From Spirochaetia bacterium (lineage in GTDB: Bacteria > Spirochaetota > Spirochaetia > UBA9216): DNA of 64,000 nucleotides. Of the stretch, positions 5,291-57,307 are shown piece by piece. The DNA lies in NCBI GenBank assembly GCA_963675665.1, contig OY776510.1:3232001-3296000 (forward strand). Direction: 5' to 3'. The notes beneath the pieces are model-generated. The model worked only from the letters and a program-made list of their open reading frames with translations. It had not been told where the DNA came from and did not search any database. Made by a program: the position numbers and the translations under genes. Position 1 is the stretch's first letter; each line of letters opens with the position of its first letter.

Positions 5291-6534
<1,244 letters not shown>

Positions 6535-45980: not shown

Positions 45981-46265
45981 AAAAAACAAGTATATATGTT
46001 TTTTTATGAATCCGCAACAGAAAAAACAAAAAAATGTTTGCCTAAACATGTATTAACAGAGGAAACCGTGATTTTTACTGTTTTTATCATAATTTAACAC
46101 TAAATTGAAGCTATGGGTGCGGGACTGTCGCGGCGTTTTGTTCTTGCGGATGGTCTGCGGATGGCATGTTAGAAAAAAGATGCATGAATTAATAAATTAT
46201 TGTAAAATAAAACAAGATAAAATTTCTAGATAAGTGTGCTCCTGAATATTCAAGAGGAGAAAATA

Positions 46266-46646
46266 ATGAAAAAAATAGTATTTTTGATCTCGATCCTGAT
46301 AATCGTTTTAGGGTTATTGTATTCATGTGAAATCTTCGGCGAAAAATTTACGTCCTGGGAACATATCATAATTGCATCCAATTACACGGATAAGGGTGAT
46401 TATGCTGTATACAGGATTGTCGATGACAGATTTAACACTCTGGACTGGTATGATCTATGGATGGATGATTCATTTTGGGATTCTTCGGCTGGATGGAGCA
46501 GTTTTGAAGGCATATATGATACGGATGACGGCAGATTTTATTTTGAGCCCGAGTATTACAACGGCTACGTGGAATGGAACGCATATTCTGATATGGATAT
46601 TGTCGGCGCAACAATCAGGTTCTACAGGCGGGAGTATCCAGAATAG
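46266..46646 (+). CDS. Hypothetical lipoprotein
   Basis: RBS GAGGAG; spirochaetal lipobox 'LLYSC'; Trp/Tyr/Asp-rich mature part. Confidence 0.65.
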   Translation: MKKIVFLISILIIVLGLLYSCEIFGEKFTSWEHIIIASNYTDKGDYAVYRIVDDRFNTLDWYDLWMDDSFWDSSAGWSSFEGIYDTDDGRFYFEPEYYNGYVEWNAYSDMDIVGATIRFYRREYPE

Positions 46647-47465: not shown

Positions 47466-47494
47466 TTGAAAAAGCCGGAGAAATAGCCTATACT
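47466..47494 (+). promoter_or_regulatory. Promoter for cassette 1
   Basis: TTGAAA-N17-TATACT. Confidence 0.6.
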
Positions 47495-47529
47495 GTCGGT
47501 ATAGGAAAATAAAAAAGACGGAGAATTAT

Positions 47530-49104
47530 ATGTCTGGAAGAAAACTGTTCTTCAGCTTGGTGATTCTTGCAGCCGTTTTACTATCGCCTGTCGCAGCTCA
47601 AAACCGGGAAACGCTCGCAGTTCTTGATTTTACAACCGAAGCAGTCTCTGAAACAGAAATGAATGCAATAGTGGAATTCCTGTCGGCTGAACTGTTCAAT
47701 ACCGACAAGTATATCGTTATTGACGTCAGCCAGCGTGAAACAATCCTGACGGAAATGGAATTTTCCAATCAGGGATGTACAGATGAATCATGCGCTCTTG
47801 AGATTGGTAAATTACTGTCTGCGGAATTAATAGTTGTAGGAAATCTGTCCAAAGTAGGAAGCCGCTATCTTATGTCTGTAAAAATGCTTCAGACCGAAAC
47901 GTCGAGGACAATGGGGACTGCAAACGGAAAATTCAATGATCTGGATGAACTGATTGACGGGCTCGAAGCGATCGCCGTAACCCTTGCAGGGAAGGAAAAG
48001 GATACTGTAGTTGTAGCGACTCCTGAACCGGAGCCTGAACCTGAACCCGAAGCAGCGCAGCCGATTGCTGTTGCTGCAGAGGAACCCGCGAAGCCGGTTG
48101 AAGCAGAAGCTCAATTACCGGCCGCACCTGATAAAGCAGATGAAGAAGAAAAAGCACCGAAGGAGTCCGGTTCGTTTAATATTCTGTCTTTTGCAGCCTC
48201 AGCCCTGGGTGCCGGTGAATTTGTAACTGCAGGTATTTTCAGAAACATGGGTTTTGCAAGCAGATTGAAGGCGGAAGATGCATACGACGCCTATATGGCC
48301 GCTGTTATTGATCCGGGCTTGTTGTATTCAGGGGACGGAGACACCGATTATGAGCATTATTATAACAGATATGAAACACAAACAAGATGGAGTTATATAA
48401 CCTCCGGAATTGGAGGCGGGTTATCAAGCGCCTCATCTTATCTCGGCGATTCGTATATGTCTTTCGGCGGAAAACTGACTTATGCAGCCGGCGCTGCGGC
48501 TCTTGCGGCCGGAAATTTTCTTTCTGCAATATCTTTTAATAACGCATTCAGCAGCACTCAAGCATATGAAGACTACTTGTCAGCAGGCACCGATGAGGCT
48601 GCGCAAGCCCTCTGGGAGAATTATTCAGGGTACTATGATTCATATCAGATACAGCAATTTATAAGTTACGGGCTCTGGGGTGCCGGAGGGTTGCTGTCTA
48701 TTGGTTCATGGTTTATTCCCGGAGATAAAACCCCTGCAGCATCGGGAATACTTAATAAAATTATTATGACTGCGGGATATTTATTTTTTACCGGGGGCAA
48801 CTTTACAAGTTCGATTGCAACGAATACGCATTTTACTGCTGAAGAAGCCTATGATGATTATATGTCGGCGAGCACCTCCGATGCAGCTTCTTATCTGTAT
48901 GATAATTATCAAAAAACACAGGAATTTTATGAGATTATGACATATACAACCTACGGACTCTGGGGCGTCGGGGCAGCAGCTGTCATTACAGCAATGCTTC
49001 TGCCGTCGGGCTCCGGTCACGCAGTTGCGTCCGATCTGGAGAATTTCGCAATAAGACCCTCGCTTACGGGAATAGGCGTGGAAGTTAATATTAAATTGAG
49101 ATAA
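47530..49104 (+). CDS. Exported CsgG/HfaB-like (TolB_N/FlgO-like) domain protein with PE linker and three Tyr-rich membrane hairpin repeats
   Basis: Signal peptide; 'LAVLDF...GCTDESCALEIGKLLSA'; (PE)n linker; three 'AYxxYxxA' repeats. Confidence 0.7.
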   Translation: MSGRKLFFSLVILAAVLLSPVAAQNRETLAVLDFTTEAVSETEMNAIVEFLSAELFNTDKYIVIDVSQRETILTEMEFSNQGCTDESCALEIGKLLSAELIVVGNLSKVGSRYLMSVKMLQTETSRTMGTANGKFNDLDELIDGLEAIAVTLAGKEKDTVVVATPEPEPEPEPEAAQPIAVAAEEPAKPVEAEAQLPAAPDKADEEEKAPKESGSFNILSFAASALGAGEFVTAGIFRNMGFASRLKAEDAYDAYMAAVIDPGLLYSGDGDTDYEHYYNRYETQTRWSYITSGIGGGLSSASSYLGDSYMSFGGKLTYAAGAAALAAGNFLSAISFNNAFSSTQAYEDYLSAGTDEAAQALWENYSGYYDSYQIQQFISYGLWGAGGLLSIGSWFIPGDKTPAASGILNKIIMTAGYLFFTGGNFTSSIATNTHFTAEEAYDDYMSASTSDAASYLYDNYQKTQEFYEIMTYTTYGLWGVGAAAVITAMLLPSGSGHAVASDLENFAIRPSLTGIGVEVNIKLR

Positions 49105-50730
49105 GGAGATAGAGATGAAAAACAGAACAAAGATTGTTTTTATTATATCAGTTTTGATGATTTTACTGGTTATTGCAGCTTGCGACGTGCTGGTGGCGCC
49201 CATAAAAGGCAGAAGCAACCCGTTTGATACGGGTAACCCGGTTCCGGCGGCAGCGAATTTCAGCGCCGAGCTTCTGTACAACGAAGGCAGCTTTATCGGC
49301 CTAAGCTGGAACGACGGTGAAACAAGTGAGAGTAATAAAACAGAAGGATACCTTATTATCAGAAAGGCAAGCGAAGCTCCGGAGTCCATCTATGACGGAG
49401 AGGTTGTAGGAAGAGTTGATTACGGAAATCAAACGTATAATGATTATATAGACGGCAATGATGATTACCCCAGGGGATGTCGTGTATACTATTCAATCTT
49501 TTCATTCGGTGGGAAGTGGGACGATATGAATGAGGATGAACGGTTATTTATTGATTACAAGGACGGCGGTGGAGCTGAAATCGGAAACGCGGAAAATTAC
49601 GATTTTACCGGTCCGGTATCTGCTTCGGTGGTGGTAACAGATACTGTTACATTGGAAGCATCAAGTGCCGGGTCTATTTTCAATCCGTCGGGAGCCCAGG
49701 CGGATCCGCTTGAAATCTATGTGGATAATACTTATATAACTCAAATCATAAGTTTTATAAATTTTGATCTTAAAACCGCCGGGGTAAGTAATAGCGTAGT
49801 TACAGATGCTGTATTGTATTTAAAAACAAATGATAATTCTGTTCATCCCACAGGAACAGGCTCTATGCATATACAGGTGATGAATCGGGAATGGGAACAA
49901 CAGACCTGGGATTATGTAAGCGTAAGCGATGCTGTATATGAAGATGATATTGAAATATCGCCACCAGACACATCGCAAACTGATTTTAATCAGGATATAA
50001 CTGATATAGTAAAGGTTTGGGCATCAGGAGAAATTATAAATTACGGATTAAGGTTATATTCAGAAAGTGCAACCATGCCTTACTATCGACAATTTTACAG
50101 TATCGGTAACGGCGACAATTCACCTAAACTGACTGTAACCTACTATAAGGAATAAAAGTTGATCTAAGGGGGGGCTTTGTTCCCCTCCATAATAGTTTAA
50201 AAATTCACCAACAAATATTTAATTCTTGATGAAAAATCCAAAATAATCTACTATACTCTATATTAGAAACATCTAAATACTGCGGAGTTGTGTATGTTGA
50301 TAAAAAAGGCCTCTGTTATCGGTCTTCTGCTGGTAGCATGTATGTGTCTTCCCCTATATTCACAGGGAAAAGAAACGCTGGCGGTTCTTGATTTTCAGAC
50401 CGAAGCTGTGTCTGAAGTGGAAATGAACGCGATTGTAGAGTTCCTTTCGGCCGAACTTTTTAAAACTAACAAGTATGTCGTAATAGACGTCAGTCAGCGT
50501 GAAACAATCCTGAGCGAAATGGAATTTTCGATGCAGGGCTGTACGGATGATACCTGTGCTCTTGAAATAGGTAAAATGCTGTCAGCCGAGATGATTGTAA
50601 CTGGAAACCTGTCCAAGGTAGGAAGCCGATACCTTATGTCGGTAAAAATGCTTGAGACTGAAACTTCAAGGACAATGGGAACTGCAAACGGAAAGTATAA
50701 AGATCTTGACGAACTGATAGACGGTCTTGA
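47590..50730 (+). repeat. Diverged direct repeat of about 380 bp (47590-47970 and 50372-50730) encoding the shared CsgG-like domain
   Basis: Long identical blocks such as CAGCGTGAAACAATCCTGA; differences mostly at third codon positions. Confidence 0.85.
49115..50155 (+). CDS. Lipoprotein with FN3-like and C-terminal DNRLRE/CBM96-like domain
   Basis: Lipobox 'IAAC'; 'SFINFDL', 'AVLYL', 'DITDIVKVW', 'NYGLRL', 'PKLTVTY'. Confidence 0.65.
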   Translation: MKNRTKIVFIISVLMILLVIAACDVLVAPIKGRSNPFDTGNPVPAAANFSAELLYNEGSFIGLSWNDGETSESNKTEGYLIIRKASEAPESIYDGEVVGRVDYGNQTYNDYIDGNDDYPRGCRVYYSIFSFGGKWDDMNEDERLFIDYKDGGGAEIGNAENYDFTGPVSASVVVTDTVTLEASSAGSIFNPSGAQADPLEIYVDNTYITQIISFINFDLKTAGVSNSVVTDAVLYLKTNDNSVHPTGTGSMHIQVMNREWEQQTWDYVSVSDAVYEDDIEISPPDTSQTDFNQDITDIVKVWASGEIINYGLRLYSESATMPYYRQFYSIGNGDNSPKLTVTYYKE

Positions 50731-51310
50731 ACCGATTGCTTTCGGACTTGCGGGACTTGATTCTACTGCAGCTGTTGCTGCGGAACCGGAACCGGAACCT
50801 GTGTCTACAAATGCCCGACAACGCACAGTGCCGACACCCGAACAGGGTGAAGAAACGGTTGCAACCGCCGCTGCGCCTGAAGAAGCAGGCGGCCCTGCCC
50901 AAACAGCAAGAGACACTGCTGAAGAATCAAAGAAGGCTGAAAAATCCGGGGGATCGGCGGTTCCGGCAATAGTATGCACGGCAACAGGCATCGCGGGAAT
51001 CGGGGCCGGCGGATACTTTCTATACAGGCTTTTTTCAAACAGCCTTCCGGCATATAATACTGCGAAAGACGCGTATGATTTGGCATACGGAGACGATGCC
51101 GACTACACCGGCTTATATAATGCAAGCGCAGATGCATACGACAAGGCCTTTCTTGATTTTGTTATCGGCGCCGGCGCTGCGGGGCTTGGAGTTGTGCTTA
51201 CTACCGTAGGCATTATTCTCTTCCCGCCGAAAGAAGACAAGGGTACCGAGCTGAGCTTCATGCCGGTAATATCGGATAATCCCGGAATGGTCCTCCGGGT
51301 AAGCTATTAG
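50288..51310 (+). CDS. Second CsgG/HfaB-like domain protein with one Tyr-rich membrane hairpin
   Basis: N-terminal domain nearly identical to that of 47530..49104; Ala/Pro/Glu linker; 'AKDAYDLA...LYNASADAY'. Confidence 0.7.
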   Translation: MCMLIKKASVIGLLLVACMCLPLYSQGKETLAVLDFQTEAVSEVEMNAIVEFLSAELFKTNKYVVIDVSQRETILSEMEFSMQGCTDDTCALEIGKMLSAEMIVTGNLSKVGSRYLMSVKMLETETSRTMGTANGKYKDLDELIDGLEPIAFGLAGLDSTAAVAAEPEPEPVSTNARQRTVPTPEQGEETVATAAAPEEAGGPAQTARDTAEESKKAEKSGGSAVPAIVCTATGIAGIGAGGYFLYRLFSNSLPAYNTAKDAYDLAYGDDADYTGLYNASADAYDKAFLDFVIGAGAAGLGVVLTTVGIILFPPKEDKGTELSFMPVISDNPGMVLRVSY

Positions 51311-51319
51311 GAGGCGGTC

Positions 51320-52846
51320 ATGAACAGAAAGATAATAATAACCTTGCTGATTGCGGTAATTCTGGCTGCGGCTGTTCTTGCCGGTTGTGAAATATTCGAA
51401 GGACCGCCGATCAGGGACAATCTTAACGATCCGAACAGAGAAGCAGATTACGATATAAATTTAACCCTTGATAACGGTATTGATTATATCGGGGTTCGCT
51501 GGGAAAAAAGCGGGAACATAGATTATGATTTTGAATACCGGATTGTTTACGGAACAGATCCTGATGTAAACAGCGGTAGTAATGACAAACTCTATGTCGG
51601 AGGAGACCAGTATAATATTGGCGATCTTAGTTACGGAACTGAATACAATATATGGCTGCAGGGTGTCGAAAGAGACAATGATGATAACGTAATCTTTTCA
51701 AAATACATCAGCAGCATGCCCGAAGCAAGGGGTGATTTTGTTTATGATTTTGCAGGCAGCGGCGTTTTCACAGTGCCCGGTGACGATACATCGACTTACG
51801 ATCTGGTAAGCTTTGACGACAACAGTATTATTATCGCGGCGGATTATAATTTCATGGGAAATCAGATTTTTGTTAGACTTGCTTACGACGGTTTGTTATT
51901 AAGCGGTTTCGGCACATACGGTATATATGATCCGGGGGTTTCTCCTGTTGATATTGCATGCGCAAAAATGTCGAACGGAGACTTTATAGGCTTCATAAAG
52001 CGGACTACATTTGGGGATCTGTATTATTTTAAAAATGATGAATATACATATTCAACAACCATGAGTTATGCGGCAGCCGCAGCCTGCGGAATGGACAATA
52101 ATTATATGGCGGTAACCGGCACCAACGGAGTGGATAAATTTTCAGTTCTGGTGTTCGATGAAAATCTTATGTCTACGACTGTCGTTGAATATTCTGTAGA
52201 TCATAACCTTTTTTCGTATACTGTTAATACAAGCAGGTCTAATGATGTTTATTATAATAATGAAAGATTATATGCAGCCGGATGGATAGAGAGCACCTCT
52301 TTTGATTATTATATGCATGCGGTCATACTTGATCCGGATAATATAAATATACCGTATGAGTTGGAATTTAATGCCGACTGGGATCCTTCGGAATTACGGG
52401 TTCGCACTATCGGTACTACGGGAACGGAATTATTCGGCCCGCAGATTGCAGCCGACAATGACGGCAATGTTTTCATAGCCGGACGCGGAATTATTTCTAA
52501 ATTCAGAGAAAACGGAAGTCTGTATGATATGGATGAAGAATGGGCTGAATACGGCAGCATTTATCTTCCCGACGGGTTGTTCCCTGTTGATTTGATAGTA
52601 CAGGAGAACGGAAAGATACTGCTTTTTGCCAATAGATGGGCGGATTTTGACGGGCCTACTCCGTACCTGGATCAGAGCTATGTGTACAGATTCAACACCG
52701 ACGGAACTCCGGATTTAAATTTCGGCCCGGACGGAAAAGGAAATCTTCCGTTAACTGATTTAATAACAGGCGCTGATCTCAAAGCGGACGGAAGGATAGT
52801 AGTCTCTGCAAACGGCGGAGAAGGTTATGTTTATCAGATAGAATAG
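51320..52846 (+). CDS. Lipoprotein with FN3-like domain and Delta-60-like beta-propeller repeats
   Basis: Lipobox 'LAGC'; 'LSYGTEYNIW'; 'VQENGKIL', 'RFNTDGTPDLNFG', 'KADGRIVV'. Confidence 0.65.
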   Translation: MNRKIIITLLIAVILAAAVLAGCEIFEGPPIRDNLNDPNREADYDINLTLDNGIDYIGVRWEKSGNIDYDFEYRIVYGTDPDVNSGSNDKLYVGGDQYNIGDLSYGTEYNIWLQGVERDNDDNVIFSKYISSMPEARGDFVYDFAGSGVFTVPGDDTSTYDLVSFDDNSIIIAADYNFMGNQIFVRLAYDGLLLSGFGTYGIYDPGVSPVDIACAKMSNGDFIGFIKRTTFGDLYYFKNDEYTYSTTMSYAAAAACGMDNNYMAVTGTNGVDKFSVLVFDENLMSTTVVEYSVDHNLFSYTVNTSRSNDVYYNNERLYAAGWIESTSFDYYMHAVILDPDNINIPYELEFNADWDPSELRVRTIGTTGTELFGPQIAADNDGNVFIAGRGIISKFRENGSLYDMDEEWAEYGSIYLPDGLFPVDLIVQENGKILLFANRWADFDGPTPYLDQSYVYRFNTDGTPDLNFGPDGKGNLPLTDLITGADLKADGRIVVSANGGEGYVYQIE

Positions 52847-52870
52847 AAGCATTAGAAAACAAGATTTTAC

Positions 52871-52895
52871 GGCCTGCGTAAGCAGGCCATTTTTA
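52871..52895 (+). terminator. Intrinsic terminator of cassette 2 and insertion target of the intron
   Basis: GGCCTGC-GTAA-GCAGGCC followed by ATTTTTA. Confidence 0.75.
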
Positions 52896-54799
52896 GTTTG
52901 CCCTGCATGGGTAATGACTTGACGGTGAGAGTCCGTTACAGGTGGTAGTGTTAAAGAAACTGTTAGCTGACAGCAAGGGCGTAGTCGTGAGGCTGGGTCT
53001 GAAGGAAGCATGAGGCAAATTTCCGAACCGACGAACAGAAATCACATATAAGGCTTTATCAGTGGACGAGTTTGCTAAAAGTGACGAAATCCGCACTACA
53101 ACTGATGAAGTAAATGTGGCGGTTACATGGAAGGAAAGTCATTATCCTTAACGGGGGAGGTCTCATGGACGTCTTAGGCTGCAATATCGCTTATTATAGA
53201 CGGAGTAAAGCTTGCCATGAGAAGTCAGCAGAAGCCATAGTAGTGATGAGGAAACATCATGAAGGGCTGAACAATCAAATACCTTTCAAAGCGGAAAGGC
53301 CTACCTGATAATCCGAACGACGAAAAAAAAAAAAAAGTCTTCACAGGGGATAATTCAGAGTAGAAAGGAACACATGAGAAAGGACGACAAGTTAATACCG
53401 AATACCAATCTATGCGAACAACTGATTTCCCCTGCAAATATTCAGGAAGCTGTCAGAAAGGTGATGGCAAATAAAGGTGCCTGTGGAGTGGATGGAATGG
53501 GAGTAGAAGAACTCCCGAAATACTTCGAGGCGAACTATCCTGAAATATGCAGGCAGATTTTGAGCAGGAAGTACAAACCAAAACCAGTACTGCGAGTAGA
53601 AATACCAAAAGACAACGGGGGCGTACGACTTCTGGGGATCCCCACGGTAATAGACCGTGTAATCCAACAGGCTATGGTTCAGGTTTTAACTCCGGTGTTT
53701 GAACCGACTTTCAGCGACTTTAGTTTTGGGTTTCGACCGAACAGAAGCGCAGAAGATGCGGTTCGACTCGCCCAGACCTACATGTCCGAAGGATACACCC
53801 ATGTAGTTGATTTGGATTTATCCAAGTTCTTCGACACTGTAAACCATGACATCCTAATGAGTTTGATAGACAAACACATGGACGATAAGGACATCAGGAG
53901 GCTCATCTACGTATTCTTAAAAAGCGGAGTGATGACGGATGGAAGTATGATGGCCACAGCCTTGGGAACACCTCAGGGGGGACCGCTGTCTCCACTACTG
54001 TCAAATATTTATCTAACCCCGTATGACAAGGAATTGGAAAAGCGGGGATTACGTTTTGTCAGGTACGCAGATGACTGTAACATCTTCACAAAGAGCAAGA
54101 GGTCTTCTTACCGGGTGAGAGATAGTGTGAAAAGCTATCTTGAGCGAAAATTAAAACTTAAAGTGAATATGGAAAAGACAGAGGCGCGAAAAGCCGCGGG
54201 CTCTTCCTTCCTCGGATTCACCTTCTTGACCTACGGGAAACAGGAAATATTAGGAAGAGTCTATCCTCAAAAGAAGAAACTTAAGAAGCTCGAAGACCGT
54301 ATCAGACTAATTACCCGATGTAACAGAGGAGTAAAGATTGAAACGGTTATTAAAGAGCTTAACAGCATGTTCAGAGGATGGATAGGATACTTCGCAAGAA
54401 GCTCCATGAAAAACTACCTCGAAAGGTTGGTGGAGTGGACAAGAAGACGCATTCGCCAATATCTTTGGAAACAGTGGAAAACCGGAAGGAATAGAAAACA
54501 TCGTTTGAGACAATTAGGCGTTAGTGATTCTGTTCTGAGCCATTGGAAACTTGGAAGCAACTCTTATTGGAAAATGGCCGGTGTTATGAATCCTCTGTTG
54601 AAGAACGATATAATTCATAATCACTTTGGGTTGTTAGATGCTCTGGATTTCTACAAGAAACTCCATACGAAACGCATGGAGGCTGATCGGGTGGTACTTG
54701 ATTTGAGGTACCACAGTCTATTTGGTTGAACCGCCGTATACCGAACGGTACGTACGGTGGTGTGAGAGGCAGAAATTTATTGATTTCTGCCTACTCGAT
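52896..54799 (+). mobile_element. Group II intron, class C (IIC), apparently full length
   Basis: 5' GTTTGCCCTGCATGGG; DIII-region GAAGTCAGCAGAAGCCATAGTAG...GAAGGGCTGAAC; DV GAACCGCCGTATACCGAACGGTACGTACGGTGGTGTGAGAGG with CGC triad; DVI ending CCTACTCGAT; inserted 7 nt after a terminator stem. Confidence 0.9.
53374..54729 (+). CDS. ltrA: Group II intron reverse transcriptase/maturase without endonuclease domain
   Basis: 'NKGACGVDG', 'RLLGIPTVIDR', 'GTPQGGPLSPLL', YADD, maturase 'RGWIGYF'. Confidence 0.95.
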   Translation: MRKDDKLIPNTNLCEQLISPANIQEAVRKVMANKGACGVDGMGVEELPKYFEANYPEICRQILSRKYKPKPVLRVEIPKDNGGVRLLGIPTVIDRVIQQAMVQVLTPVFEPTFSDFSFGFRPNRSAEDAVRLAQTYMSEGYTHVVDLDLSKFFDTVNHDILMSLIDKHMDDKDIRRLIYVFLKSGVMTDGSMMATALGTPQGGPLSPLLSNIYLTPYDKELEKRGLRFVRYADDCNIFTKSKRSSYRVRDSVKSYLERKLKLKVNMEKTEARKAAGSSFLGFTFLTYGKQEILGRVYPQKKKLKKLEDRIRLITRCNRGVKIETVIKELNSMFRGWIGYFARSSMKNYLERLVEWTRRRIRQYLWKQWKTGRNRKHRLRQLGVSDSVLSHWKLGSNSYWKMAGVMNPLLKNDIIHNHFGLLDALDFYKKLHTKRMEADRVVLDLRYHSLFG

Positions 54800-55099
54800 T
54801 AATTTTATCAGTACGGAGGCGGCCGTGTCGCAATTTGAAGAACTCAGAATAGTCGACAACTTCTACCAGACAAGCGCTTATTACCCGATGCCTGTTGTTG
54901 CGATAACTACTTTAAATGATAAGGGGCTGACTAACATAGGTCCTTACTCATTATGCTTTCCATATTATGTTGCGGGTAAAGACTACTACGCAATGCTGCT
55001 TGAAACTCGAAACAACAGCAATACCGCGTAACCGTCAAAACAACCGCACCTTATGTTGAACTCTGAAATCTATTAAACTCCGGGAAGCTGGAGGAAATA

Positions 55100-55414
55100 A
55101 TGAACAAGCAATATACCGCTAAAGAGCGAGCAGACTATCTCACAGAATGGCGTGAGTCCGGGATGTCCGGAGGTCAGTTCTGCCGTGAGAATGATATACG
55201 GCCAACCACGTTTTATAACTGGACCAAACAAGAACGGCAGAAACAGAGAACACAAAAACCGGGTTTCGTAAAATTGCCAATGCTTGAAATACCTGCTGTG
55301 AAGAAAAATATAATCCTCGAACACGGTGGTTGGAAAATAATCCTGCAGCCTGGATTCAGCAGAGAAGATGCAATGGCAGCGATGGACCTGGTGGAAACGA
55401 AAAGTGTTTCCTGA
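55100..55414 (+). CDS. tnpA: IS66 accessory protein TnpA
   Basis: HTH 'WRESGMS..QFCRENDI..TTFYNW'; first ORF inside the IRs. Confidence 0.85.
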   Translation: MNKQYTAKERADYLTEWRESGMSGGQFCRENDIRPTTFYNWTKQERQKQRTQKPGFVKLPMLEIPAVKKNIILEHGGWKIILQPGFSREDAMAAMDLVETKSVS

Positions 55415-55751
55415 TTTCTCCAAGATAAAGATATTCATAAAACCAGGCAGTACCGATATGAGAAAAGCAATAAATGGCTTATCTATGATAGTAGCTGATG
55501 AGCTTGAATCAGATCCACTATCAGGCAATCTATTTTTATTTTGCAATAAAGAGAGACGGAATTTGAAAGCTCTCTATTGGGATAAAAACGGGTTTTGTTT
55601 ATGGCAGAAGAAACTTGAAAAACATCGCTTTCCATGGCCGAAAAATAATCAGGATGCAATAGAGCTGAAGCAGACTGAGCTTGACATGCTTCTAAAGGGT
55701 ATAGATTTCTGGAATGCTCATACAGAATTAAAATATTCTGAAATAACATAG
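55404..55751 (+). CDS. tnpB: IS66 accessory protein TnpB
   Basis: 'TDMRKAINGL', 'LFLFCN', 'LYWDKNGFCLWQKKLE..RFPWP'; GTG start. Confidence 0.92.
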   Translation: MFPDFSKIKIFIKPGSTDMRKAINGLSMIVADELESDPLSGNLFLFCNKERRNLKALYWDKNGFCLWQKKLEKHRFPWPKNNQDAIELKQTELDMLLKGIDFWNAHTELKYSEIT

Positions 55752-55795
55752 TATAAGGAATTTACCCTCGGATCAAAAAATGCTAGACTTAAGAT

Positions 55796-57307
55796 ATGGA
55801 TGTTGAAAAGCTTCCTGAAGAAGTACAGCAATACATCAAAGATATTGAACGAAAATGGGCAACGAAATACCAGGCGCTGGAAGAGCGTTTCAAGCTTGAA
55901 TTGTTCAAGAAATATAATCGTTCCAGCGAGAAAGACACAGCCGCTCAGATATTACTTTTTGATAGTGAACCGGATATTGCTCCCGAAGAAGAATCTGAAA
56001 CTCAGAAGGTAGAATCCTATACCAAAAAGAAACCTGGTCGAAAGAAGATAAACGAGAATCTTCCCCGTGAAGAAATCCTTATTGATATACCCGAAGAAGA
56101 GAAGAAATGCGCTTGCGGAGCAGAACTGGTTAGAATAGGCGAAGAAATATCCGAACGAATAAAAGTTGTACCGGAACAGATGTGGGTAGAAAGAACCATC
56201 AGACCCAAATATGCCTGTAAGACTTGTGAAGGCAGCGGAGATGAAGATAAACCTGCGGTGCGGATAGCCCCGACTGCTCCCACAATCTTTCCCAAAAGCA
56301 TAGTAACACCCGAGCTCCTTGCATTTTTGCTTGTAAATAAATATGTAGATCATTTGCCTTTCTACCGGCAGGAAAAGAGATTTGAGCGAATAGGGATCAG
56401 CATAAGCCGACAGGATATGAGCAACTGGCAAAGACAGGCATATGAAGCTCTTATAATCCTGCTTGAACTGATGAAAGAACATCTGAAAACCGGTTCGGTT
56501 ATGCAGATGGATGAAACGAGAATACAGGTTCACAATGAACCGGATAGGCCTGCTACTCGAAACTCCTATATGTGGCTTGCCCGAGGGGGGCCTCCGGGGC
56601 AAGTTGCAATTCTATATGAATATCATGAAACGAGGGGTTCTAAGAATATTCGCAGTTTTCTGGACGGATTCAGCGGCTATCTTCAGACTGACGGTTATGA
56701 AGCATATGTTACAGCGTTGAAAGATTATCCAGATATAATTCATGCCGGTTGTTTTGCTCATGCAAGACGGAAATTCTTTGATGCATCAAGAGTATCCAAG
56801 AAACCTGGCAGTGCTGCTGAAGGGCTGAAATATATTCAGAAACTGTATTTGATAGAGAATGAACTCAGAGCTAAAAACTTAAGTGAACCCGAGTTTCTTG
56901 CAGAAAGAAAAAAGAAGGCAGAACCGCTATTGGCCAAGTTCAGTTCCTGGCTTGAGAAAAGGCAGCATAATGTTGTTCCTTCGACTGAACTCGGAAAAGC
57001 GATATCATATACAATTGGGCAATGGAGCAAACTTGTAAATTATCTTGAATCACCTTATTTGACTCCGGATAATAATGCCTGTGAAAATGCTATCAGGCCG
57101 TTTGTGTTGGGCAGGAAAAACTGGTTGTTTGCCGGCAGCCCAAAAGGTGCTGAGAGTTCTTGCGGGATTTATTCACTTGTTGAAACAGCAAAGCAAAACG
57201 ATCTCAACCCTTATGTTTATCTGAGAAAAGTATTTACCGAAGCTCCGTTGATGAAGTCCAGTGAAGATTGGCAGGAGCTTCTTCCCTGGAATATTTATCT
57301 TAACTGA
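55796..57307 (+). CDS. tnpC: IS66 transposase TnpC
   Basis: Zn finger 'CACG...YACKTC', 'HLPFYRQ', 'MDET', 'TDGY', 'CFAHARRKF', 'DNNACENAIR', 'RKNWLF'. Confidence 0.96.
   Translation: MDVEKLPEEVQQYIKDIERKWATKYQALEERFKLELFKKYNRSSEKDTAAQILLFDSEPDIAPEEESETQKVESYTKKKPGRKKINENLPREEILIDIPEEEKKCACGAELVRIGEEISERIKVVPEQMWVERTIRPKYACKTCEGSGDEDKPAVRIAPTAPTIFPKSIVTPELLAFLLVNKYVDHLPFYRQEKRFERIGISISRQDMSNWQRQAYEALIILLELMKEHLKTGSVMQMDETRIQVHNEPDRPATRNSYMWLARGGPPGQVAILYEYHETRGSKNIRSFLDGFSGYLQTDGYEAYVTALKDYPDIIHAGCFAHARRKFFDASRVSKKPGSAAEGLKYIQKLYLIENELRAKNLSEPEFLAERKKKAEPLLAKFSSWLEKRQHNVVPSTELGKAISYTIGQWSKLVNYLESPYLTPDNNACENAIRPFVLGRKNWLFAGSPKGAESSCGIYSLVETAKQNDLNPYVYLRKVFTEAPLMKSSEDWQELLPWNIYLN

Follow-up and report, generated by a model that had tools for sequence, protein, structure and literature searches.

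Gene pairs of a TolB-N/LpoB-like membrane protein and a lipoprotein with a conserved lipid-proximal motif in Spirochaetota, a candidate docking module with exchangeable heads

The N-terminal domain of TolB (TolB-N), LpoB, GNA1162 and PelC are envelope domains that work through the binding of partner proteins, and both PelC and CsgG assemble into rings, of twelve and nine subunits, respectively. To our knowledge, the sorting and display of lipoproteins in spirochaetes is largely unknown, and no consensus signal has been described. Here we analysed a stretch of 64,000 nucleotides (the window; positions 3,232,001 to 3,296,000 of contig OY776510.1, assembly GCA_963675665.1) from a Spirochaetia bacterium with a genome of 5.15 Mb in one contig that is 96% complete. 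In this window, an earlier note had described two tandem cassettes of like layout, each consisting of a gene for a membrane protein (A) followed by the gene for a lipoprotein (B). The four open reading frames (ORFs) lie on the plus strand within 47466..52895 of the window and were confirmed as A1 (47530..49104, 524 aa), B1 (49115..50155, 346 aa), A2 (50294..51310, 338 aa) and B2 (51320..52846, 508 aa). A2 is counted here from the ATG at 50294, the form that the databases carry; a TTG at 50288 is also open and gives 340 aa. Genes for A homologues show a strong and specific tendency to have a lipoprotein with an R-x-N-x-x-D motif as their next neighbour, and the resulting module combines a known fold with a lipoprotein motif that is new.

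The genome of this bacterium contains 19 matches to the N-terminal domain of A (the N-domain or head), eight of which are directly followed by a motif-bearing lipoprotein gene at a distance of 0-22 nt or with an overlap. Among the ten A genes that have the layout of signal peptide, N-domain and hydrophobic hairpin, eight have a motif lipoprotein next to them, and the heads of these eight paired lipoproteins comprise DNRLRE, a weak propeller, seven delta-60 repeats, five LVIVD repeats, an FGE-sulfatase-like domain (twice), PKD with FG-GAP, and FN3 only. For the counts that follow, lipoproteins were loosely defined by a regular expression (regex) and the motif was scored if it lay within 35 residues of the lipobox Cys. 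By this measure, six of the seven regex-recognised after-A lipoproteins of the genome carry N-x-x-D-P and all seven carry N-x-x-D, compared with 2 and 40, respectively, of the 458 other lipoproteins of the same genome that served as control. Two 'orphan' motif lipoproteins are also present in this genome, and no recognisable A domain was found among the neighbours of one of them (L057).

For the sampled loci of other genomes, the A core was located by a hidden Markov model (HMM) of the N-domain. On contigs of species representatives (47 loci, of which 45 are Spirochaet-named, one is from Leptospiraceae and one from Chitinivibrionales), a lipoprotein is encoded next to 27 of the 38 assessable A genes, with N..D present in 22 cases and N..DP in 16. 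The best matches of a phylum sample of 301 genomes gave 29 assessable A genes, with a lipoprotein next in 11, N..D in 9 and N..DP in 7, and metagenome contigs with a G+C content of 0.40-0.67 gave 41, 27, 20 and 16, respectively. These counts are conservative, as contig ends and regex misses were scored as failures, and four loci (L062, L105, L138 and L146) are positive by eye. A lack of preference of A homologues for lipoproteins as the next gene had been named beforehand in the earlier note as one of the outcomes that would speak against its proposal; this outcome was not observed. The gap between the A and B genes is -4 to 25 nt in most relatives, and in the window the B1 start lies 10 nt behind the A1 stop and the B2 start 9 nt behind the A2 stop, preceded by the Shine-Dalgarno sequences AGGAG and AGGAGG, respectively. 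Judged by these junctions, the A and B genes appear to be translationally coupled.

B1 and B2 are unrelated in sequence save for the lipobox and R-x-N-x-x-D. In B1, the lipobox Cys23 (49181-49183) is followed by R33-S-N-P-F-D38 (49211-49228), and in B2, Cys23 (51386-51388) is followed by R32-D-N-L-N-D-P38 (51413-51433), all on the plus strand. The motif, in its fuller form R-x-N-P-x-D-P, sits 7-15 residues past the lipidated Cys, and it proved to be real in an alignment of 19 B N-termini, where invariance is restricted to Met1, the lipobox Cys, N34 and D37. Position +2, directly behind that Cys, is occupied by D/E in 15 of these 19 proteins; in E. coli, Asp at position +2 leads to retention in the inner membrane. 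In the phylum sample, the gene that follows one A homologue (L112) encodes a signal-anchor-like N-terminus without Cys that nevertheless has R-V-N-P-A-D, so the motif is not strictly tied to lipidation.

Behind the motif, the sequence pattern of B1 fits an FN3-like stalk, and the DNRLRE head that had been proposed for this protein scores well above threshold (NF033679, residues 201-342, 56.5 bits against a cut-off of 34). For the delta-60 propeller proposed for B2, the predicted fold is propeller-like, but the sequence score falls short: the match to TIGR02608 reaches 20.9 bits against a cut-off of 76.5, and an SBBP match is also weak. The AlphaFold model of B2 (pLDDT 78.6, pTM 0.79) predicts an FN3-like beta sandwich at residues 44-132 and a beta-propeller-like head at 149-507, with the motif in a low-confidence tether (pLDDT 31-41), and the compact Foldseek matches of the all-beta head are propellers with seven blades (CylK, PLL lectins, G-beta and BamB). 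A paralogous B protein (B4) matches TIGR02608 at 291.6 bits. A word-based homologue search for B2 returned one close orthologue only (87%), and distant B2 orthologues were taken from the loci adjoining A2 orthologues. Identity between orthologues amounts to 63% and 59% for A and to 40% and 23% for the corresponding B proteins, and by this measure B evolves much faster than A. In one metagenome-assembled genome (locus L064), the B1-type gene after an A1-type gene is apparently broken into a 45-aa lipoprotein stub and a downstream frame (5613-5750 and 5671-6306).

The A proteins contain all the parts that had been read from their sequence, namely a C-x4-C pair, a Pro/Glu/Ala linker, Gly-rich hydrophobic helices and a terminal alternating strand. 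In A1, a signal peptide is followed by the TolB-N/LpoB-like N-domain (about residues 24-155, 47599-47994, plus strand) with C83-x4-C88 (47776-47793), the Pro/Glu/Ala linker, three Gly-rich hydrophobic helix pairs and a terminal beta hairpin that ends in ...NFAIRPSLTGIGVEVNIKLR. The unit that is repeated three times consists of a Gly-rich hydrophobic helix, an acidic Tyr-rich loop (AYDAY, AYEDY and AYDDY) and a hydrophobic helix. A2, with a signal peptide at residues 1-24, has only one such Gly-rich hydrophobic pair. Its AlphaFold model, built on an alignment of 60 sequences (pLDDT 79.2), predicts a signal helix, an alpha/beta domain at residues 27-152 (50372-50749, with C83-x4-C88 at 50540-50557), disorder at about 155-218, two 40-residue helices at 222-262 and 271-309 (50957-51220; pLDDT 88-98), and a C-terminal beta hairpin at 319-337 that ends in ...GMVLRVSY (51248-51304), again on the plus strand.

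A1 and A2 are 53% identical over 300 residues in BLASTP, with almost all of the similarity in the N-domain, where 110 of 130 amino acids and 306 of 390 nucleotides are identical. As had been noticed from the letters, the changes are mostly synonymous (55 against 29 non-synonymous; dS 1.28, dN 0.10, dN/dS 0.08), a substitution pattern that shows the two heads to stem from an old duplication and to be under strong purifying selection; the dS of 1.28 rules out that their likeness results from a recent gene conversion. The C83/C88 pair is nearly invariant in the 60-homologue alignment and its loop is probably disulphide-bonded; the pair and the cleavable signal peptide place the head outside the cytoplasm. 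Neither A1 nor A2 has a lipobox, as a Cys is missing from the cleavage site of their signal peptides, which end in ...VAAQN and ...LYSQG, and the same was found for the 60 homologues, which share with A1 and A2 the features of the family, namely a signal peptide, an N-domain with C-x4-C, a spacer and two Gly-rich hydrophobic helices. In addition, the last residue is Y, F or W in 56 of the 60, and 53 have an alternating hydrophobic strand at their C-terminus. A further paralogous head in the genome (L014, G000:C1:1340425-1340640) contains two in-frame TGA stops and is likely a pseudogene.

Comparison of the A2 model with the PDB by Foldseek gave 48 matches at E<=1e-3, and among the matches listed all are TolB-N/LpoB/PelC/CsgG-like. 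The best of these for the head is the TolB N-domain (E 8e-6), followed by LpoB (E 2e-5, TMt 0.66), GNA1162 (TMt 0.63) and PelC (TMt 0.53), with CsgG being the weakest (rmsd 11.5 Å for 4UV2 and 13.6 Å for 6L7C). By its predicted structure, the A head belongs to the TolB-N/LpoB/PelC/CsgG-like fold superfamily. A sequence search of the PDB with the 60-sequence A profile returned nothing meaningful (best E 0.13), and the family profiles of Pfam and NCBIfam were narrowly or clearly missed: A1 and A2 score 20.1 and 19.4 bits against a cut-off of 20.8 for CsgG (PF03783, of which positions 8-99 of 210 were matched), 19.4 and 21.2 bits against 22.3 for LpoB in PF13036, and 20.9 and 22.5 bits against 110.55 for LpoB in TIGR02722, and the head is also just under the cut-off of DUF3280. 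Thus, the description 'CsgG/HfaB-like' in the earlier note holds as a resemblance at the superfamily level but failed as membership in CsgG. The two beta hairpins per subunit that build the 36-strand barrel of CsgG were not found in the A2 model, which has a single C-terminal hairpin after the helices. Profile searches for curlin, CsgE and CsgF (PF07012, PF10614 and PF10627) gave no match in the 96.4% complete genome, with a positive control in E. coli, so that the lack of curli subunit genes first seen in the window extends to the whole genome. The identification of A as the CsgG curli channel is ruled out by the sub-cut-off score and the absence of a lipobox, barrel hairpins and curli partners, and that as LpoB by the sub-cut-off scores, the absence of a lipobox and the reversed order of linker and head. 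The database labels of the family, CsgG/HfaB-like or hypothetical, are misleading in this respect, with one A homologue being labelled 'CsgG/HfaB family protein' by NCBI.

The A family is widespread. A homologues occur in each of the 11 genomes of the order, where the number of matches per genome reaches 19, and at E<=1e-10 the A profile matches 120 of the 301 genomes sampled from Spirochaetota, which covers 74 of 126 genera. Among the 1.84 billion representatives of a sequence library, those matching A2 number at least 130 at E<=1e-30, 3,440 at 1e-10 and 12,930 at 1e-3, and most of the top 150 are 270-370 aa long with the layout of A2. Look-alikes of A were also found in Myxococcota, Calditrichota and Fidelibacterota (ESM Atlas; sequences without gene context).

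Several A types can be told apart, and each pairs with its own variant of the lipoprotein motif. The type with the terminal beta hairpin pairs with C-x(7-15)-R-x-N-P-x-D-P lipoproteins, a type of about 580 aa, one member of which is encoded in the genome studied here, with C..LPLNP[YW]DPE lipoproteins, a type of about 510-520 aa with ACDLFDPS...RDNPLD.DFW lipoproteins, and a type ending in 'SPTFGVDIRL' with CNPF[DN]P lipoproteins. In the types of about 580 aa and 510-520 aa, PEGA domains together with a coiled coil make up the spacer, and the protein has a helical C-terminus and no terminal beta hairpin. The B heads of the A types beside the hairpin-ended one are RCC1 with laminin-G, or Kelch. 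Common to all A types are only the N-domain and the Gly-rich hairpin, and common to all B types only the lipobox and the N-P-x-D element; the simplest reading of this limited overlap is that the head reads the motif. In every case, a long spacer keeps the A head far from the membrane segment, and the motif lies near the lipid anchor of B. In addition, the N-domain is fused to an FGE-sulfatase domain, which forms the head of two B proteins in the present genome, in 5 of the 12 representatives of odd architecture that were scanned (P0150, P0110, P0131, P0093 and P0172). These fusions give moderate support of the Rosetta-stone kind for a link between A and B, lessened by the general promiscuity of the head. 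Other architectures of the head include tandem arrays of five copies, an outer-membrane protein (OMP) beta-barrel with a FlgT middle domain, and a periplasmic binding protein (P0160, P0158 and P0091, respectively).

The arrangement that we favour, with moderate confidence, is that A and its own B form a cognate complex in equal amounts, in which A would serve as a constant, possibly oligomeric membrane base that docks B via the lipid-proximal motif. In this model, A is exported by Sec without lipidation and has its TolB-N/LpoB/PelC-fold head at the N-terminus, with a long spacer (disordered Pro/Glu/Ala, or PEGA and coiled coil in the sister subfamilies) parting the head from a Gly-rich helical hairpin embedded in the membrane, and in the subfamily of A1 and A2 a short amphipathic beta hairpin with a terminal aromatic residue follows. 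In B, the lipid-proximal R-x-N-P-x-D-P precedes a stalk of the Ig/FN3 type and a head that can be exchanged freely (DNRLRE, several kinds of propeller, FGE-sulfatase-like), and B would represent the variable working part, acting through binding or as an enzyme, either at the surface or within the periplasm. The head of A would bind the motif of its own B, and both would be part of a membrane complex. The sequences and models show the architecture, the fold class, the motif and the gene pairing with its breadth and specificity, whereas physical binding, equal stoichiometry and the membrane involved are what we infer here. Equal amounts are suggested by the presence of one A gene per B gene, by the tight or overlapping junctions, and by A heads so alike that a catalytic factor would have needed no second copy. 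The inner membrane is taken as the default location of this base, because strongly apolar helices normally stop there, but A may also reside in the outer membrane or in an oligomeric assembly.

Several observations weigh against a docking base of this kind. The pairing is not universal, as 2 of the 10 A genes of the proper layout in the genome have no B, and elsewhere about a third to two thirds of the assessable A genes are without a recognisable lipoprotein next to them, some of these cases being regex failures or contig ends. The motif could also be read by another, shared machine instead of A. The helices are rich in Gly (fraction 0.21-0.23) and only moderately hydrophobic, with a family mean Kyte-Doolittle (KD) value of 1.38 and 1.50, 19-residue hydropathy peaks of 1.49 and 2.10 in A2 and KD peaks of 1.16-1.49 in A1, so that the assignment to a membrane is tentative. 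The loop between the helices (columns of A2 residues 245-286) has 7.5 D/E against 2.3 K/R and 11% Tyr, and K/R are found on the outer flanks of the helix pair in 47 of the 60 homologues; this distribution of charges runs against the positive-inside rule for a simple N-out hairpin in the inner membrane with a cytoplasmic loop. Finally, the terminal strand looks like the C-terminal signal of outer-membrane proteins, for which the base model offers no explanation.

These last features are accommodated by an export or display pore, in which A would oligomerise via the ring-prone head and glycine-zipper helices, the C-terminal hairpins would form an outer-membrane conduit, B would be flipped to the surface and NPxDP would act as the export signal. 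We regard such a pore as unlikely, as we do the broader proposal of a lineage-wide display system, in which R-x-N-P-x-D-P would direct the sorting or export of lipoproteins and be read by a dedicated TolB-N-like receptor forming a membrane conduit or platform via the glycine-zipper and terminal hairpins. The ring formers PelC and CsgG among the fold matches of A2, the Gly content of the helices, which suits homo-oligomer packing, and the alternating hydrophobic strand with a terminal aromatic residue in 53 of the 60 homologues, like the last strand of outer-membrane barrels, are all in favour of the pore. The moderate hydrophobicity and reversed charge bias of the hairpin allow a location outside the inner membrane, the B heads are of extracellular types and fast-evolving, and one-to-one gene pairs of transporter and cargo are known elsewhere, as in two-partner secretion and Slam. 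However, A lacks a lipobox and the barrel hairpins of CsgG, which is also its weakest fold match, and the strands of the A2 model are, with about 7 residues, short for a barrel. The A types with PEGA and coiled coil have no terminal hairpin and still pair with motif lipoproteins, so the terminal hairpin cannot be the shared conduit, and a catalytic exporter with a recognition head that is 85% identical between copies would need no copy per cargo. Hence, of the view in the earlier note, the constant A with variable B cargo is retained, while the ring or pore by which A would export B found no support in the CsgG tests or in the subfamilies without hairpin.

It is improbable, in our estimate, that A is instead a transient sorting factor or chaperone, one that would bind the motif during biogenesis only, retaining, releasing or stabilising B, and be absent from the final assembly. 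The small chaperone Lep is reportedly needed for the leptospiral LipL41, and the position of the B motif, 7-15 residues from the acylated Cys, is where the sorting signals of other phyla lie (Lol avoidance through Asp+2, and the export signal of Bacteroidota). The acidic +2 residue of most B proteins and the disordered tether of the B2 model also suit a transient role, and the pairing statistics would be equal to those for a stable complex, from which the present data do not separate it. What makes it less attractive is the cost of one large, multi-domain A with anchor and spacer per B for a passing interaction, and comparisons with Pfam, NCBIfam and Foldseek revealed no similarity of A to LolA, LolB or Lep. 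Co-regulation without contact, in which the A head would bind peptidoglycan, a synthase or an outer-membrane component and the B motif would be calcium-binding, structural or a signal to a general machine, the two genes staying together only through their part in a common process, is very improbable: the N-domain is indeed widespread and promiscuous (with fusions to periplasmic binding proteins, OMP barrels, Lcl_C and PEGA), many A homologues have no B, and the motif of L112 occurs without a lipobox, but the motif is near-exclusive to after-A lipoproteins, its variants co-vary with the A subfamilies, and the A and B genes appear translationally coupled.

As for the regulation of the two cassettes, their description as separately promoted units is plausible from the sequence. 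Promoter-like hexamers precede both A1 (TTGAAA-17-TATACT, 47466..47494, 10/12 matches) and A2 (ATGAAA-17-TATACT, 50229..50257, 9/12 matches) on the plus strand, but the promoter scan as a whole was not significant, with 20 sites compared with 12.6 +/- 4.1 in shuffles, and the hexamers are thus candidates only. A G+C-rich inverted repeat without a T run after B1 (about 50163..50188, plus strand), read by eye and not flagged by the scanner, is a candidate terminator, and the terminator scan placed a terminator-like hairpin with a T run after B2 (52871..52888, plus strand). Upstream of the cassettes, on the opposite strand, lies an acyl-ACP thioesterase gene. A small ORF for a lipoprotein of 136 aa that belongs to no family (window 46236-46646) is located upstream of A1 and is kept in the same place (629-1039) before the A1-type gene of locus L063, and could belong to the A1/B1 neighbourhood as a third gene. 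Directly after the B2 terminator, a group II intron (Rfam RF02001, RF01998 and RF00029; window 52981-54799) carries an RT/maturase ORF (53374-54729), and an IS66-family element (window 55100-57307) follows with ORFs for an HTH transposase, an IS66 Orf2-like protein and a DDE_Tnp_IS66 transposase. The similarity between the relic ORF at 54726-55031 and the gene after the B1-type gene in locus L063 suggests that the intron and the IS element broke into an older synteny.

In the accessible portions of the literature on CsgG-, TolB- and LpoB-like proteins, spirochaete surface lipoproteins and DUF5683, no description of the A-B cassette or of its motif was found. A paper on TolB-like propeller lipoproteins of Leptospira (PMC8638967) is, in the part of it that is available, irrelevant to the cassette. 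The present finding supplies a conserved lipid-proximal motif, a specific candidate reader that is encoded next door, and dozens of natural cognate pairs per lineage. If A docks or delivers B, the module would represent a compact and modular means of placing arbitrary domains in the envelope. Should the display proposal turn out to be true, each genome would hold a library of interchangeable heads for the surface (propellers, DNRLRE and FGE-sulfatase-like), each delivered by its own base, and diderm bacteria would have a new route for surface lipoproteins beside Slam, the Bacteroidota export signal and Lpt-linked routes.

Among the described systems, those that resemble the cassettes in concept only, with no homology, are Slam with its surface lipoproteins and the lipoprotein export signal of Bacteroidota. 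Slam, composed of TPR and a DUF560 barrel, is a dedicated factor encoded beside its lipoprotein cargo, and the Bacteroidota signal is acidic, K-(D/E)2-like, located just after the lipidated Cys and read by shared machinery. The CsgG/HfaB channels (PDB 4UV2 and 6L7C) have in common with A the alpha/beta core of their periplasmic domain, but A has no lipobox and no aligned barrel-forming hairpins, and there is no CsgA, CsgE or CsgF in the genome. PelC, known with PelB (PDB 5T11 and 9H80), has the same fold as the A head and is a ring-forming periplasmic helper of outer-membrane export; however, it is a small lipoprotein without a membrane hairpin, no pel operon is present here, and the cargo linked to PelC is a polysaccharide instead of a lipoprotein. 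TolB (PDB 4PWZ, 4R40 and 2HQS) provides the best fold match and joins the head to a beta-propeller that binds the lipoprotein Pal, whereas the cassettes split the head (A) from the propeller lipoprotein (B2 and many other B proteins). The propeller is thus carried by the lipoprotein and not by A, and B heads are not always propellers; moreover, TolB is soluble and A membrane-embedded, and neither a Tol gene context nor membership in TolB at the sequence level was found. LpoB, the activator of the penicillin-binding protein (PBP) PBP1B in enterobacteria (PDB 4Q6L and 4Q6Z), has the same globular fold as the A head, and in both proteins a long flexible linker lies between the membrane attachment and the head, by which LpoB reaches its partner across the periplasm. 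The orientation is inverted, in that LpoB is an outer-membrane lipoprotein with a C-terminal head and a PBP as its partner, whereas in A the signal peptide is cleaved off, the head is N-terminal and a hydrophobic helical hairpin is present, and its proposed partner is the downstream lipoprotein. By analogy, the working logic of A and B would be closest to that of LpoB with PBP1B and of TolB with Pal.

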